Shown: one piece after another, positions 57,529 through 63,481 of the stretch
Layout of the letters: every line of letters begins with the position of its first letter
How positions within the stretch are numbered: position 1 is the first letter of the stretch
Virus record (IMG/VR): IMGVR_UViG_3300032286_000505
Coordinates: 1 to 64,000 of that record
Source of the DNA: a virus
Taxonomy: Duplodnaviria > Heunggongvirae > Uroviricota > Caudoviricetes
Reading direction: 5' to 3' (one strand)
Length of the DNA stretch: 64,000 bases
The notes under the pieces: model-generated
Databases searched by the model: none
What the model saw: the letters and a program-made list of their open reading frames with translations, nothing else
Told to the model about the DNA's origin: nothing
Program-made: the position numbers and the translations under genes

Positions 57529-57597
57529 TTAAAGTAAACTGGCGCACGGCTTGACTCTGAATCAAGTGACGAAGCATAGCTAGACAGTTTACTTTAA
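57529..57597 (+). repeat. inverted-repeat-bounded element (13-bp arms TTAAAGTAAACTG/CAGTTTACTTTAA) enclosing an inner hairpin
   Basis: Perfect 13-bp terminal complementarity; internal CTTGA-CTCTGAA-TCAAG stem-loop. Confidence 0.5.
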
Positions 57598-57632
57598 TAA
57601 GCACTTTCGAAAGAGAGTGTTAAATGTTAATT

Positions 57633-57718
57633 GGAGCTTGTTCCCCATTGCCGGCTGTAACCCGGTAGCCATTGTCAAGTGGGGTGGCTGGCAAGAGGTT
57701 CGATTCCTTCAGGCTCCA
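57633..57718 (+). tRNA. tRNA-like, probably degenerate (Tyr-type anticodon loop CTGTAAC, D-arm not foldable)
   Basis: Canonical T-arm, acceptor 3' strand, discriminator and CCA; 5' strand GGAGCTT pairs; region for the D-arm is too short. Confidence 0.3.
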
Positions 57719-57729
57719 CCATATCAAAT

Positions 57730-57802
57730 GCCACAGTAGCTCCAATGGTAGAGCAGCGGATTGAAAATTCGTGTGTTACTGGTTCGAGTCCAGTTTGTGG
57801 TA
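57730..57802 (+). tRNA. tRNA-Phe (GAA)
   Basis: Acceptor GCCACAG/TTGTGGT, D-arm GCTC-CAATGGTA-GAGC, anticodon loop TTGAAAA, T-arm ACTGG-TTCGAGT-CCAGT, CCA. Confidence 0.8.
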
Positions 57803-57807
57803 CCAAG

Positions 57808-57883
57808 TTTTAGGATAGTTACAGCAAACACAAAGCTAAACTTTTTGGTTGTCTAGCGACAAAAGCTATCCTGTTATTTTTAT
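57808..57883 (+). repeat. conserved pre-tRNA spacer element family member A (TTTTAGGAT..GTTACAGCAAAC...ATCCTGTTATTTTTAT)
   Basis: Shares 5' and 3' blocks and a long-range stem with the elements at 62011 and 62159; abuts the tRNA-Glu 5' end. Confidence 0.6.
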
Positions 57884-57955
57884 ACTCCGGTCGTCTAGTG
57901 GCTAGGACGCCAGCCTTTCAAGTTGGAGAAGCGGGATCGAAACCCGTTCGGAGTA
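57884..57955 (+). tRNA. tRNA-Glu (TTC), variant copy
   Basis: D-arm GTCTAGTGGCTAGGAC, anticodon loop CTTTCAA, T-loop ATCGAAA (A54), CCA. Confidence 0.6.
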
Positions 57956-58022
57956 CCAAGTTTATGAGTTCGTCTAGAAACCGGTAAATTGTAGTTTAGT
58001 CTACAAGCTCATGATTCAATAT

Positions 58023-58095
58023 GCCGTTGTAGTCCTCTGGGTAGGGCACCTGATTGTCTATCAGATTTAGGCGGGTTCGATTCCCGTCGGCGGCG
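58023..58095 (+). tRNA. tRNA-Asp (GTC), copy 1
   Basis: Anticodon loop TTGTCTA; T-arm GCGGG-TTCGATT-CCCGT; identical to the copy at 59078. Confidence 0.8.
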
Positions 58096-58103
58096 CCAAT
58101 TAT

Positions 58104-58192
58104 GGAAGCGTGGCAGAGCCCGGCTTATTGCAGCAGTCTTGAAAACTGCCGGCCCCGAAAGGGGCCCGTGAGTTCGAATCTCACCGCTTCCG
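58104..58192 (+). tRNA. tRNA-Ser (TGA), type II
   Basis: Acceptor GGAAGCG/CGCTTCC, anticodon stem-loop GCAGT-CTTGAAA-ACTGC, variable-arm hairpin GGCCCC-GAAA-GGGGCC. Confidence 0.8.
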
Positions 58193-58355
58193 CCAAGTTT
58201 CTGAGATAGACGACGAGATGAGTCCCTGGTATTCTAGTGCCCTATTTCTTGAGCATGACACACCAGTAGAATTGTGCCAGGTTGCTTAAACTCTCTTGAT
58301 CGAGACAAGCCTGTGAGTCCTTAAGAAAGATAGCAGGTCTCTCGGAAACCTACAT

Positions 58356-58442
58356 AGCGAGTTGCCAGAGTGGTCTATTGGCGCATCTTGGAAAGGTGAT
58401 GGTTCCGTAAGGGGCACGAGAGTTCGAATCTCTCACTCGCTA
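58356..58442 (+). tRNA. tRNA-Ser (GGA), type II
   Basis: Acceptor AGCGAGT/ACTCGCT, anticodon loop TTGGAAA, T-arm GAGAG-TTCGAAT-CTCTC; 27-43 is a G-A mismatch. Confidence 0.55.
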
Positions 58443-58450
58443 CCATACAT

Positions 58451-58522
58451 GGGGTGTGACTGTGTAAATGGCTAACAGCAGGCCACAAAGCCTGGTCAGC
58501 AGTTCGACTCTGCTACACTCCA
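58451..58522 (+). tRNA. tRNA with ambiguous identity (atypical 6-nt anticodon loop CACAAA)
   Basis: Good acceptor (GGGGTGT/ACACTCC), D-arm CTGT/ACAG, T-arm AGCAG-TTCGACT-CTGCT and CCA, but anticodon stem CAGGC/GCCTG encloses only 6 nt. Confidence 0.45.
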
Positions 58523-58529
58523 CCAAATT

Positions 58530-58613
58530 GGAAGATTATCTAGTCTGGGACTAGGACTGTTTCGAAAGCAGAACGACTGCCTAGCGGTTGGGGTTCGATT
58601 CCTCAATCTTCTG
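58530..58613 (+). tRNA. tRNA-Ser (CGA), type II
   Basis: Anticodon loop TTCGAAA with stem ACTGT/GCAGA (first pair mismatched), long variable arm, T-arm TGGGG-TTCGATT-CCTCA, CCA. Confidence 0.5.
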
Positions 58614-58626
58614 CCAACAATTTAAT

Positions 58627-58706
58627 GCTGCTTTGGCCGAATGGTTAGGCACCGTCTTGATAAGGCGGCTCGAAAGAGAACATAGGTTCAATTCCTATAG
58701 GCAGCA
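58627..58706 (+). tRNA. tRNA-Ile (GAT) with unusual long 13-nt variable arm and 3-bp D-stem
   Basis: Anticodon stem-loop CCGTC-TTGATAA-GGCGG; D-arm GCC-GAATGGTTA-GGC resembles Leu type; variable arm CTCGAAAGAGAAC; T-arm ATAGG-TTCAATT-CCTAT. Confidence 0.5.
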
Positions 58707-62009: not shown

Positions 62010-62010
62010 G

Positions 62011-62084
62011 ATTTTAGGATCAGTTCAGCAAACTTAATAAACTTTCTTTTATCCAGAAACTAAAAAGTTGATCCTGTTTTATAT
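62011..62084 (+). repeat. conserved pre-tRNA spacer element family member B
   Basis: TTTTAGGATCAGTTCAGCAAAC...TGATCCTGTTTTATATAT; abuts the tRNA-Trp 5' end. Confidence 0.6.
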
Positions 62085-62155
62085 ATCTCTCTGGTGTAAT
62101 GGCAGCACCGCGGTCTCCAAAACCGTCAGTCAAGGTTCGAGTCCTTGGGGGGATG
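62085..62155 (+). tRNA. tRNA-Trp (CCA)
   Basis: Anticodon stem-loop GCGGT-CTCCAAA-ACCGT; T-arm CAAGG-TTCGAGT-CCTTG. Confidence 0.8.
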
Positions 62156-62158
62156 CCA

Positions 62159-62230
62159 GTTTTAGGATGCGTTCAGCAAATTCAAAAATTCAACTGTTAA
62201 TTGAAAAATAAGCATCCTGTTTTATTATGT
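62159..62230 (+). repeat. conserved pre-tRNA spacer element family member C
   Basis: TTTTAGGATGCGTTCAGCAAAT...GCATCCTGTTTTATTATG; abuts the tRNA-Gln 5' end. Confidence 0.6.
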
Positions 62231-62301
62231 TCCTCTATAGTGTAATGGTAGCACAACGGGCTTTGAACTCGTTAGCCCTGGTTCGATTCCAGGTGGGGGT
62301 G
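62231..62301 (+). tRNA. tRNA-Gln (TTG), copy with unpaired 1-72 (U.U)
   Basis: Anticodon stem-loop ACGGG-CTTTGAA-CTCGT; D-arm GTGT/GCAC; T-arm CCTGG-TTCGATT-CCAGG. Confidence 0.6.
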
Positions 62302-62311
62302 CCAGATTTAT

Positions 62312-62386
62312 ACCCTGTTCGCCAAGTTGGTCTAAGGCACTGGATTTTGATTCCAGCATTCTGAGGTTCGAATCCTTGACGGGGTG
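62312..62386 (+). tRNA. tRNA-Gln (TTG), E. coli-like copy
   Basis: Anticodon stem-loop CTGGA-TTTTGAT-TCCAG and D-arm GCCAAG..AAGGC as in E. coli tRNA-Gln. Confidence 0.75.
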
Positions 62387-62408
62387 CCAAAATATTTTTA
62401 AAAATCTA

Positions 62409-62437
62409 TTGACATAGATAGTAAAAGGCGCTATAAT
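62409..62437 (+). promoter_or_regulatory. sigma70 promoter TTGACA-17-TATAAT
   Basis: Perfect consensus upstream of the HNH gene. Confidence 0.6.
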
Positions 62438-62535
62438 ATAGCTTATGTTAAGTAATTAACGATGTTCTTTAAAAATATTTAATTTTAAGTTAAAACTTGC
62501 CTCTACCGTATAAATAAAAGTAACAGGAGAATATC

Positions 62536-63150
62536 ATGTTATGTGATTATGGATGCGGGAAAGAAGCAAGTTTTCTACTTAAAAATGGAAAAAATTGTTG
62601 TAGTAAGCGACCAGCAGGATGCGAAATTTTAAAGTCTGTTAATAGTAACGGGCTTAAAAAAGCATATGCTGAAGGTCGTAAAGGTTATACCTATAATCCG
62701 GCTAGTGCCTGGAGCAAAGGAAAATCATTGACTACTAATGAAACAATTTTTACCAGTGATAGTTTGTACTCAAATGAGTTAGTCAAACAACGAATAGTTA
62801 AAGACAACTTATTAGAATATAAATGTGTCAAATGTGGTATTGACAGTTGGTGCGGAGAAACTATTGTTCTCGATTTAGATCATATAAACGGTGACAACCG
62901 TGATAATAGAATTGAGAATTTACGGTATCTATGCCCTAACTGTCATAGCCAAACTGATACATACAAAGGTAGAAATAAAAATACCGGAAAACTTAAGGTA
63001 AGTGACGAAGAACTATTGACAGCATTGAAAAATAATGCTACAATAAGACAAGCGTTACAAGAAGTAGGTTTAGCCGCAAAAGGCGGAAACTACGAAAGAG
63101 CAAAGAAATTAAATGCGCGGGTGGTGGAACGGTCTACACATCAGACTTAA
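62536..63150 (+). CDS. HNH homing endonuclease with N-terminal Cys-rich zinc-binding region
   Basis: LDLDHINGDNRDNRIENLRYLCPNCH; 3' end overlaps the tRNA-Leu 5' half, with the stop TAA lying in the anticodon loop. Confidence 0.7.
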   Translation: MLCDYGCGKEASFLLKNGKNCCSKRPAGCEILKSVNSNGLKKAYAEGRKGYTYNPASAWSKGKSLTTNETIFTSDSLYSNELVKQRIVKDNLLEYKCVKCGIDSWCGETIVLDLDHINGDNRDNRIENLRYLCPNCHSQTDTYKGRNKNTGKLKVSDEELLTALKNNATIRQALQEVGLAAKGGNYERAKKLNARVVERSTHQT

Positions 63151-63195
63151 AATCTGACGGCGCAAGCCTTGCGGGTTCGAATCCCGCCCCGCGCA
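63115..63195 (+). tRNA. tRNA-Leu (TAA), type II
   Basis: Anticodon stem-loop TCAGA-CTTAAAA-TCTGA; variable-arm hairpin GGC-GCAA-GCC; T-arm GCGGG-TTCGAAT-CCCGC. Confidence 0.8.
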
Positions 63196-63198
63196 CCA

Positions 63199-63315
63199 TT
63201 AATTGAATCTTCTGCAAGCACAGAGGTTTGATCATACGTTATGTAACCAAAACAATAAACAGTAAACTCGAGTAAAGCTGTTGAGTTAGGCATATAGTGT
63301 AGAGGATTCAATTAA
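63199..63315 (+). repeat. inverted-repeat-bounded 117-nt element (11-bp arms TTAATTGAATC/GATTCAATTAA)
   Basis: Perfect terminal complementarity between tRNA-Leu and tRNA-Tyr. Confidence 0.45.
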
Positions 63316-63316
63316 T

Positions 63317-63399
63317 GGATGTGTAGGAAAATTGGTAACCCCAGGAGACTGTAAATCTTCCGCCCTAGTGCATTGTTGGTTCAAGTCCAACCCCATCCA
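63317..63399 (+). tRNA. tRNA-Tyr (GTA), type II
   Basis: Anticodon stem-loop GGAGA-CTGTAAA-TCTTC; long variable arm; T-arm GTTGG-TTCAAGT-CCAAC. Confidence 0.8.
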
Positions 63400-63408
63400 C
63401 CAAACAAT

Positions 63409-63481
63409 GTCCCATTCATCTAGAGGCCTAGGATAGTACCCTTTCACGGTATTTACAGCGGTTCGAATCCGCTATGGGACG
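63409..63481 (+). tRNA. tRNA-Glu (TTC), canonical copy
   Basis: Near-identical architecture to E. coli tRNA-Glu (GTCCCAT TC ATCTAGAGGCCTAGGAT ... CTTTCAC ...). Confidence 0.85.

Follow-up and report, generated by a model that had tools for sequence, protein, structure and literature searches.

Arrays of transfer RNA (tRNA) genes are well known in phages, and in the tRNA regions of T4, T5 and Xanthomonas phage XacN1 densely packed tRNA genes on one strand are accompanied by small open reading frames (ORFs) and homing-type endonucleases in an AT-richer phage genome. Some phage tRNAs act against defence nucleases, as exemplified by the T5 tRNA-Tyr, which withstands PtuAB of retron-Eco7/Septu owing to its distinctive variable loop, and by a T5 tRNA-Lys variant acting against PARIS, the phage copy differing at the nuclease site in these cases, and the tRNA region of phage T6 is amplified by a homing endonuclease (PMC13096335; PMC11555353). 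The T6 enzyme SegB acts in a tRNA-rich region comparable to the one described here (PMC13096335). In this study, we analyzed a stretch of 64,000 nucleotides (nt), hereafter the window, from a tailed phage (Caudoviricetes; IMG/VR record IMGVR_UViG_3300032286_000505, positions 1 to 64,000), which carries near its end the first 6 kb of a tRNA array spanning at least 16 kb in an uncultured large phage. The array itself belongs to the known type, and XacN1 shares a tRNA-Ser with it at 86% identity; unlike the T4, T5 and XacN1 arrays, however, it contains conserved noncanonical tRNA families as well as structured RNAs in its spacers, and all of its genes encode CCA. We propose that the array is probably a translation-autonomy and anti-defence module equipped with remodelled duplicate tRNAs.

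Within the window, we found 26 tRNA genes in the array (57,633-63,484), every one on the + strand and ending in CCA, an end also encoded by an outlying tRNA-Arg(UCU) at 50,498, so that the statement of a first-pass annotation of this DNA that all genes encode CCA was borne out. Using ARAGORN, which that annotation had proposed as a check, we obtained 22 tRNAs at 57,730-63,484 plus the tRNA-Arg(UCU) at 50,498 by default, and four more under relaxed settings, each of which that annotation had likewise folded by hand, namely Ser(CGA) at 58,530-58,616, Asn(GUU) at 59,313-59,391, a gene with a 6-nt loop at 58,451-58,525 and a Tyr-like gene at 57,633-57,721. The 22 default genes conform to the canonical cloverleaf type (7-bp acceptor stem, D arm, 5-bp anticodon stem with a 7-nt loop, T arm with a GTTCRA-type loop), and the tRNA model of Rfam 15 (RF00005, gathering cut-off 29 bits) recognized 21 of them at 31.9-62.9 bits, the remaining one being a compact Arg(UCU) at 61,029 with 28.5 bits. 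The genes of the window cover 16 amino acids, Met, Val, Gly and His being absent there; the first-pass annotation had counted 22 confident tRNAs for 18 amino acids, figures at odds with its own list, which sums to 23 genes and 16 amino acids. Moreover, the island does not end at 63,481, as had been proposed, but runs on past the window end. A metagenome contig that encodes the HNH protein of the window exactly (L068) holds 38 tRNAs, 21 of which lie past the window end over another 10 kb and add Met, His, Val and Gly together with five further Leu. Judged from these two sequences combined, the full array comprises at least 47 tRNA genes for 20/20 amino acids. A further relative (L001) carries 37 tRNAs within 16 kb, and its DUF5672 protein is 87% identical to that of the window. 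The G+C content at third codon positions (GC3) of the window ORFs is 0.35, and under conservative wobble rules the window tRNAs alone read 68% of the window codons, a share that rises to about 94% with the downstream tRNAs, which would imply little dependence on host tRNAs.

Five genes of the array form conserved noncanonical families, as follows.

57633-57721 (+), noncanonical tRNA-Tyr(GUA); called by ARAGORN only at -ps80, best Rfam match the tRNA-Sec model at 26.7 bits
58451-58525 (+), Ala-like tRNA-like gene with G3:U70, A73 and CCA; 'tRNA-???(ca)' in ARAGORN at -ps90, no Rfam match
58627-58709 (+), tRNA-Ile(GAU) with a class-II-like body; ARAGORN, Rfam 56.9 bits
59313-59391 (+), atypical tRNA-Asn(GUU); ARAGORN at -ps90 only, no Rfam tRNA match
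61029-61100 (+), compact tRNA-Arg(UCU); ARAGORN default, Rfam 28.5 bits

Four of the five duplicate an anticodon that is also present in canonical form (Tyr GUA, Arg UCU, Asn GUU and Ile GAU), the canonical partners being located in the window for Tyr (an ordinary class II tRNA-Tyr at 63,317) and Arg (50,498), and in L068 for Asn and Ile(GAU).

The most strongly remodelled of these genes, the tRNA-Tyr(GUA) at 57,633, was analyzed by collecting relatives with a degenerate pattern derived from the window copy and the first relatives found, which retrieved at least 119 IMG/VR stretches; these contained at least 84 distinct tRNA-like sequences, and the contigs concerned reach 385 kb. No D stem-loop is present between positions 9 and 26, and just 10 nt separate the acceptor and anticodon stems. 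In place of the D arm, a covarying helix is formed between positions 10-16 and a strand located 3' of the anticodon arm. In this helix (S1; CCCC/GGGG in the window), the segment CCCY-R following position 9 pairs with R-Y-GGG, and at one position the pair types are UA (33), CG (20), AU (5), GU (4) and GC (3). A second helix (S2; GCC/GGC in the window; CG 39, GC 16, UA 5, AU 2) flanks the 3' segment of S1, and since S1 and S2 cross, the core is a pseudoknot. In terms of strand order, the strand that usually forms the 3' side of the D stem joins the acceptor stem, while its partner lies 3' of the anticodon arm and precedes a conserved UGG. Across 65 aligned sequences, 95.6% of the cells in the proposed structure are paired, compared to 76% in column shuffles and 37-58% when the partner strand was slid.

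In its acceptor stem, anticodon arm, T loop and 3' end, the molecule agrees with a canonical tRNA. The acceptor helix is 99.8% paired with 6 covarying pairs, the anticodon stem is 100% paired, the anticodon loop reads CUGUAA(A/C) in 62/62 sequences and has U33 and a purine at position 37, the T loop is UUCGAUU or UUCAAUU, and ACCA is encoded in 81/84. Of the elements recognized by tyrosyl-tRNA synthetase, A73 and the GUA anticodon are present, and the variable region is long but pseudoknotted. G8 and C65 can pair in 62/62 sequences, whereas 49-65 pairs in only 10%, 50-64 in 73% and 51-63 in 85%, which suggests an 8/4-like acceptor/T branch, with the proviso that G8-C65 is invariant and so comes without covariation. 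The gene had previously been described as a Tyr-like candidate that lacks a D arm and is short or degenerate: a conventional D arm is indeed missing, but a covarying replacement helix is present, and the at least 84 distinct homologues in which paired positions change together do not agree with degeneracy.

Among described tRNAs, the (8/4) and (9/3) allo-tRNAs, tRNA-Sec and the phage (8/4) tRNA-Ser/tRNA-His (PMC5389517) may share an 8/4-like branch with the remodelled tRNA-Tyr, for which tRNA-Sec is the best Rfam match. However, these described tRNAs keep a normal, often long D arm 5' of the anticodon arm, whereas here the partner strand lies 3' and is crossed by a second helix; the study of Mukai et al. 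(PMC5389517) covers no Tyr species and no pseudoknot. Mitochondrial tRNAs lacking the D arm, such as metazoan mt-tRNA-Ser(AGY), likewise have no conventional D stem-loop, but they are shortened and carry a short unpaired replacement loop, in contrast to the 87-96 nt and two covarying helices of the phage family.

The tRNA-Ile(GAU) at 58,627 resembles the class II tRNAs (bacterial Leu, Ser and Tyr) in its 3-bp D stem and its paired variable arm of 13 nt (CUC-GAAA-GAG-AAC); a 3-bp D stem and a long, type-II-like variable arm had been read by hand in the first-pass annotation and were reproduced in the ARAGORN fold. Unlike class II tRNAs, it has the anticodon and loop of a tRNA-Ile, and a GNRA tetraloop closes its short variable arm; bacterial tRNA-Ile is not known to adopt a class II architecture. 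Among 33 distinct phage Ile(GAU) genes with the same anticodon arm, seven carry a variable arm of 13-17 nt, whose stems (CUC/GAG, GUC/GAC, GGAA/UUCC, UAGA/UCUA) are each capped by a GNRA loop (GAAA or GCAA). As the stems vary while the pairing and the caps are kept, the arm is under selection. The gene has A73 rather than G73, and its identity to all compared phage tRNAs (Ser, Leu, Tyr) is 49-59/83, leaving no clear parent. Long variable arms were also observed in tRNA-Ile(UAU) genes of 91-92 nt in relatives, in two subfamilies (L068 13500-13590, L001 4508-4599, L070 3399-3490, L074 9289-9380); such a gene would be a class-II-like AUA decoder independent of lysidine modification.

The compact tRNA-Arg(UCU) at 61,029 lacks the linker at positions 8-9; its D stem has 3 bp and its D loop 6 nt, and its anticodon stem comprises six positions, one of them an internal mismatch. 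In five variants (the window copy and four others), both the D stem (CUG/CAG to CCG/CGG) and the T stem contain compensatory changes, so that the gene, described before as a 69-nt candidate that is short or degenerate, is compact as stated but retains covarying helices. In the tRNA-Asn(GUU), positions G7.A66 and C27.U43 are mismatched and the D loop has 11 nt; seven IMG/VR contigs with differing flanks carry this gene almost unchanged, with a compensatory change at pair 5-68.

In addition to these anticodon duplicates, the array encodes the Ala-like RNA at 58,451, whose 'anticodon' arm consists of a 4-5 bp stem and the loop CACAAA, the loop length of 6 nt having been noted in the first-pass annotation. 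Using the invariant D-arm sequence as a search pattern, we retrieved 11 viral, 29 metagenome and 1 genome stretch, whereas an exact 45-nt search in IMG/VR had given no match. The genome-contig match, in a Phormidesmis metagenome-assembled genome, has no tRNA-like context and is a chance match; two chance matches in all (L087 and L110, the latter from a metagenome) were left out of the alignment, which comprises 29 distinct sequences. Within it, 98.9% of the cells of the cloverleaf are paired, six/six pairs of the lower arm covary, as do acceptor pairs 2-71, 4-69, 5-68 and 6-67, and the family alignment sets the start of the gene at 58,451 rather than at 58,453 as given by ARAGORN. These 29 distinct homologues, with helices kept by paired changes, do not support a degenerate nature of the gene, which the first-pass annotation had placed among atypical or degenerate candidates.

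G3:U70 and A73, the determinants read by alanyl-tRNA synthetase (AlaRS), are present in 29/29 sequences and make up the tRNA-Ala identity set, and the RNA is predicted to be charged by AlaRS. The lower loop, in contrast to that of a decoding tRNA, shows no combination of seven nucleotides, U33, a purine at 37 and a conserved triplet: most members have G(U/A)AAC(U/C)C, in which position 37 is a pyrimidine, position 33 is often A and G32 may pair with C38; the subgroup of the window has CACAAA or CGCAAA (6 nt), and two members have GAAUA (5 nt). The RNA probably cannot decode, its lower loop offering no usable anticodon, and may serve as a decoy or as a non-ribosomal alanine donor. G3:U70, A73, CCA, the T arm and the absence of an anticodon function are features shared with the tRNA-like domain of transfer-messenger RNA (tmRNA) and with alanine minihelices; unlike tmRNA, however, the Ala-like RNA is a complete cloverleaf of 75-78 nt with a D arm and a covarying lower arm and lacks an mRNA-like part, and the 75-nt window copy gave no match to the tmRNA models (Rfam RF00023 clan).

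The spacers between the tRNA genes also harbor structured RNAs, the largest of which fills the interval between the Thr and Asp genes.

57530-57598 (+), long hairpin just 5' of the array; outer stem TAAAGTAAACTG/CAGTTTACTTTA, inner part anticodon-arm-like with loop CUCUGAA
57806-57880 (+), spacer hairpin of the form CCA-AGUUUUAGGAU-N5-CAGCAA...AUCCUGUUUU; conserved in L001, L093, L096 and L084
57959-58022 (+), spacer hairpin AGUUUAUGAGUU...AGCUCAU; 10 homologues at 91-100% identity
58196-58355 (+), spacer of 160 nt that probably forms a structured RNA; 77-89% identical to 24 full-length homologues
58872-59071 (+), conserved structured RNA of about 200 nt, found by pattern search and RNAalifold
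62010-62084 (+), spacer hairpin of the UUUUAGGAU...CAGCAA family, assigned by family match
62159-62230 (+), spacer hairpin of the same CAGCAA family with an anticodon-loop-like inner loop, CUGUUAA; 96.8% identical to L001 1077-1138

The 200-nt RNA is closed by the helix UUUGUAAG/CUUACAAA and contains a long arm whose loop is CUUCGAA (58,909-58,925), a hairpin resembling a T arm at 58,942-58,957, anticodon-like hairpins and further 3' hairpins. Pattern searches yielded at least 84 homologous copies, with 71 distinct full-length ones among the matches listed. In 81 of the 84 copies listed, 7-10 nt at the 5' end are perfectly complementary to a segment located about 190-220 nt downstream, and the closing pairings differ between copies (UUUGUAAGU/ACUUACAAA, UUUGUUGUAG/CUACAACAAA, UUUGAGAGU/ACUCUCAAA). 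An RNAalifold consensus of 58 of the 71 distinct copies has 31 pairs, 17 of them with compensatory changes, and invariant G.U pairs fix the strand. What the first-pass annotation took for a T-arm-only remnant at 58925 lies inside this RNA. Likewise, a 'tRNA-Arg(UCG)' called by ARAGORN at -ps90 (58,877-58,968) was rejected, as its acceptor stem is not kept in relatives and the true closing helix spans about 200 nt. Comparison by eye with RNase P RNA, group I introns, tmRNA, Y RNA (YrlA), T-box, 6S and hammerhead RNAs revealed nothing convincing, in agreement with Rfam 15, which gave chance-level E values of 2-6 for an isolated 226-nt segment; across the island, including the 200-nt RNA and the spacer hairpins, the best match was Dicty_Class_I_RNA at 27.7 bits against a cut-off of 41.5.

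The 200-nt RNA opens with a module, AGUUUUGUAAGUGUCAGCAAG, that is related to the spacer hairpins. The CAGCAA family has the general form CCA-(A)GUUUUAGGAU-N5-CAGCAA...AUCCUGUUUU and has 78 distinct members, 59-69 nt long, in the fetched loci. Variable positions two and three of the outer stem are paired in 99-100% of them, compared to about 50% in shuffles, and the inner loops are often anticodon-loop-like, CUUUUAA occurring 15 times. The spacer elements begin with AGUUU directly 3' of CCA and finish in a U-rich tract, and the CAGCAA spacers might function in processing or termination, as small RNAs or as decoys. The ends of the 160-nt spacer are, as read from its sequence, complementary (UUUCUGAGA.AGAC / GUCUCUCGGAAA), as in the 200-nt RNA. 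The hairpin at 57530-57598 has five homologues at 80-83% identity in related loci, and the non-tRNA spacers 58196-58355, 57959-58022, 63199-63316 and 57525-57632 are conserved in 5-24 related contigs at 77-100% identity. Cloverleaf-like elements without CCA, running from AG... to ...GUUU(U), were found in relatives (L074 5355-5429, L077 8379-8450 on the minus strand, L071 4917-4990), with 6-nt or odd loops (UUUACA-type, CUUGUG, CUAACAG), suggesting a wider set of tRNA-derived spacer elements.

Taken together, covariation in these families indicates that the unusual structures are under purifying selection, and we consider a module for translation autonomy and anti-defence the probable explanation of the array. 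In such a model, at least two internal sigma-70 promoters probably drive transcription by the host RNA polymerase into polycistronic precursors, in which host RNase P would cut the 5' ends (nearly all 5' leaders of the array tRNAs end in A-U, A-T in DNA), whereas RNase E-type cleavage and trimming would free the 3' ends, where AGUUU and a hairpin very often come after CCA. The resulting set, covering 20 amino acids and approximately 94% of codons, would leave phage translation little dependent on the host tRNA pool. The remodelled duplicates would act as backup tRNAs in which the anticodon loop, acceptor end and T loop are kept while the D/variable core is rebuilt, and this rebuilt core would hide them from host tRNA-cleaving defence nucleases. 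The clearest case would be the remodelled tRNA-Tyr, in which a pseudoknot replaces the variable region, the cut site of Septu/retron-Eco7 PtuAB in tRNA-Tyr. The structured RNAs of the spacers may be processing or termination elements, or small RNAs. As in the T5 tRNA-Tyr, the variable region of the second Tyr(GUA) of the window is altered, and in addition its D region is wholly rebuilt; the T5 cases, however, are ordinary cloverleafs with loop substitutions or overexpression, whereas in the present case the topology of the core itself is changed. The rebuilt variable region of this tRNA-Tyr and the HNH genes in the array point to a link with defence, which is suggestive rather than proven.

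Several observations weigh against this proposal. All of its functional steps are read from sequence, conservation reveals that there is selection but not what the selection targets, and a core remodelled for modification, for tuning to EF-Tu or synthetases, or for stability would fit equally well. Most homologues were gathered with patterns taken from the window copies, and the positions of these patterns, i.e. the D arm of the Ala-like RNA, part of the 5' half of the remodelled tRNA-Tyr and the UUCUUCGAAGG loop, are invariant by construction. The G8-C65 pair of the remodelled tRNA-Tyr never varies, so that covariation cannot prove it, and the near-invariance of the Asn-like gene leaves little covariation evidence. 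A purely translational role is a serious rival, although we regard it as rather unlikely: the array would provide codon compensation and tRNA supply only, its unusual folds reflecting drift or tuning to phage translation or modification factors with no link to defence. The GC3 of the ORFs and the 94% codon coverage would fit such a role, nothing in the window identifies a defence system, and large phages with near-complete tRNA sets are known. Drift, however, leaves unexplained both the presence of canonical and remodelled copies of one anticodon per genome and the family-wide conservation of the remodelled forms across many contigs. In addition, defence nucleases have been documented to target tRNA-Tyr, tRNA-Lys and other tRNAs and to be countered by phage tRNAs (PMC13096335; PMC11555353).

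That the atypical genes are decaying duplicates without a function of their own, comprising pseudo-tRNAs and a T-arm remnant, would be in line with their poor or missing scores in standard detectors and with the four anticodons present elsewhere in canonical form; yet diverged homologues keep their helices by compensatory changes along with conserved loops, and pseudogenes would not hold 95-99% pairing across 29-84 distinct sequences, making decay highly improbable. An altered decoding or amino-acid identity resulting in deliberate mistranslation, e.g. by a class-II Ile charged by seryl- or leucyl-tRNA synthetase (SerRS, LeuRS) or an Ala-like RNA inserting alanine, also appears improbable. SerRS, LeuRS and AlaRS do not read the anticodon, the Ile(GAU) has a class-II body and the Ala-like RNA has G3:U70 and A73; on the other hand, the variable arm of the Ile gene has just 3-5 bp, it carries A73 and a full anticodon loop of the type read by isoleucyl-tRNA synthetase (UUGAUAA), and the phage's own Ser, Leu and Tyr tRNAs provide no clear parent for it, while the Ala-like loops of 5-7 nt lack U33 in many members, could close by G32-C38 and vary (GUAACUC, GAAACUC, CACAAA, GAAUA) in a way that one conserved anticodon would not. 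Somewhat less remote, but still unlikely as a general explanation, is that the tRNA-like and hairpin elements function mainly outside translation, as RNA-processing punctuation, as terminators, or as decoys or sponges of host enzymes. The constant AGUUU start after CCA and U-rich end of the spacers, the frequent mimicry of anticodon loops including the 15 CUUUUAA loops, the anticodon-like and T-arm-like hairpins of the 200-nt RNA with its closing helix devoid of CCA, and an Ala-like RNA that probably cannot decode all speak for it, whereas the Tyr, Arg(UCU), Asn and Ile genes keep the anticodon loop, discriminator, CCA and T loop, which argues for real decoding. For the spacer RNAs, such roles are compatible with a translation-autonomy and anti-defence module and not opposed to it.

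We found no description of a pseudoknotted tRNA-Tyr, an anticodon-less cloverleaf with Ala identity or the spacer RNAs in Rfam, GenBank phage annotation or full-text literature searches, and the same holds for the class-II Ile, the compact Arg, the 200-nt RNA and the spacer-hairpin family. If the proposed structure is true, the remodelled tRNA-Tyr would widen the range of tRNA folds known outside mitochondria and would provide a natural test of the extent to which the synthetase, EF-Tu and the ribosome need the tRNA core. If remodelling confers resistance (to Septu/PtuAB, PARIS, PrrC or OLD), these tRNAs would be probes for nuclease recognition and could be considered for engineering as orthogonal or nuclease-proof tRNAs. 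Candidates for new RNA families are the Ala-identity RNA, the 200-nt RNA and the spacer hairpins, all of which occur abundantly in environmental phage data and are overlooked by standard tRNA and Rfam annotation. Tentatively, at least three RNA classes, i.e. a functional tRNA-Tyr with a pseudoknot core, an alanine-accepting, non-decoding cloverleaf, and the RNA of about 200 nt together with the spacer hairpins that share its 5' module, might form a counter-defence toolkit of nuclease-proof tRNAs and anticodon-arm-shaped decoys that is widespread in a clade of uncultured jumbo phages.

The other genes and the two promoters of the region are arranged as follows; the tRNAs were called by ARAGORN and matched by Rfam unless stated otherwise.

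50498-50572 (+), tRNA-Arg(UCU), canonical, outlier about 7 kb upstream of the array; Rfam 58.5 bits
57730-57805 (+), tRNA-Phe(GAA)
57884-57958 (+), tRNA-Glu(UUC)
58023-58098 (+), tRNA-Asp(GUC), copy 1
58104-58195 (+), tRNA-Ser(UGA)
58356-58445 (+), tRNA-Ser(GGA); Rfam 41.7 bits
58530-58616 (+), tRNA-Ser(CGA); ARAGORN at -ps90, L001 homologue called at default, Rfam Sec model 33.2 bits
58718-58792 (+), tRNA-Arg(ACG)
58797-58870 (+), tRNA-Thr(GGU)
59078-59153 (+), tRNA-Asp(GUC), copy 2
59161-59236 (+), tRNA-Pro(UGG); Rfam 43 bits
59521-59595 (+), tRNA-Ala(UGC), canonical
59604-59632 (+), sigma-70 consensus promoter TTGACA-17-TATAAT, 12/12 positions; spacer kept in relatives
59748-59822 (+), tRNA-Lys(CUU) with a 4-bp anticodon stem; Rfam 31.9 bits
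59826-59899 (+), tRNA-Lys(UUU)
60011-60104 (+), tRNA-Ser(GCU)
60128-60943 (+), ORF, glycosyltransferase family 17 (GT17)-like; Pfam PF04724, E = 5.6e-21
60945-61022 (+), tRNA-Cys(GCA)
61125-62009 (+), ORF, DUF5672 family; Pfam PF18922, with the 87% identical L001 homologue mentioned above
62085-62158 (+), tRNA-Trp(CCA)
62231-62304 (+), tRNA-Gln(UUG) with a U1.U72 mismatch
62312-62389 (+), tRNA-Gln(UUG), second copy, A1-U72 paired
62409-62437 (+), sigma-70 consensus promoter, 12/12 positions
62536-63150 (+), ORF, HNH endonuclease-like; weak Pfam HNH_3/HNH matches
63115-63198 (+), tRNA-Leu(UAA)
63317-63402 (+), tRNA-Tyr(GUA), canonical class II
63409-63484 (+), tRNA-Glu(UUC), second, divergent copy
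63503-64000 (+), ORF, glycosyltransferase family 2 (GT2)-like, cut by the window end; Pfam PF00535

The two Asp genes are identical across 76 nt and the Gln at 62,231 has its 1-72 position unpaired, both as first annotated, and the Pfam matches (GT17-like, GT2-like, weak HNH) agree with the earlier description of an island interleaved with glycosyltransferase genes and an HNH gene. The final 36 nt of the HNH-like ORF overlap the first 36 nt of tRNA-Leu(UAA), and a second HNH ORF is located farther along the array (L068 8563-9075). Minus-strand and within-ORF calls of ARAGORN at -ps80 were discarded as noise, and a BLAST match of window 61,388-61,472, inside the DUF5672 ORF, to an L001 tRNA-Met proved to be without real similarity once inspected. 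A mismatch leaving 4 bp in the anticodon stem occurs in Lys(CUU) (59748-59822), Asn(GUU) (59313-59391) and Ser(CGA) (58530-58616), and is the outermost pair 27-43 in Lys(CUU) and Asn(GUU); a 2026 study is reported to link 4-bp anticodon stems to relaxed decoding (PMC13092985). The promoter at 59604-59632 is followed by a Shine-Dalgarno-like AAGAGG and a 7-codon ORF, MKRSGKR (59662-59685), in a spacer kept in relatives.

The window has approximately 40% G+C and almost all of its genes lie on one strand; it encodes a ribonucleotide reductase (RNR), NAMPT and a tmRNA. Its phage origin is supported by homologous arrays in IMG/VR viral contigs of up to 385 kb, while the sole match among 185,579 genomes is a chance match. 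No close relative was found at the DNA level among 50,697 GenBank phage records, in which neither the island, the remodelled tRNA-Tyr, the Ala-like gene nor the 200-nt RNA had a near or distant DNA match, and a 600-aa ORF of the window had no match in GenBank phages. With 55-60% identity, the RNR resembles those of large Xanthomonas, Ralstonia and Stenotrophomonas phages, and this similarity, together with the beta-type permuted tmRNA, suggests a proteobacterial host. The tmRNA is a permuted two-piece molecule at 11502-11872 (+) with the tag ANDEAFLMAA (beta_tmRNA 121 bits, tmRNA_permuted 104 bits), and L071 and L074 likewise have permuted tmRNAs beside tRNA arrays.

Auxiliary metabolic genes typical of large phages comprise a class I ribonucleotide reductase large subunit with an ATP cone (1268-3610) and a NAMPT/NAPRTase gene (16742-18139). 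Upstream of the array, a sugar-modification block (50587-56696) encodes DUF5672, GT17-like, two Methyltransf_24, NAD-dependent epimerase/dehydratase and GT47/RXYLT1-like proteins, and paralogous GT17 and DUF5672 genes are scattered between the array tRNAs in the window and downstream in L068. A small ORF downstream in the array (L068 10650-10871) carries a precomputed Pfam assignment to RNA_pol_Rpb6, i.e. an omega-like RNA polymerase subunit. The window also encodes two signalling-type genes that are unusual for a phage, a FecR-domain ORF (43089-44267) and a CHASE2 sensor fused to an adenylate/guanylate cyclase domain (47280-49346).

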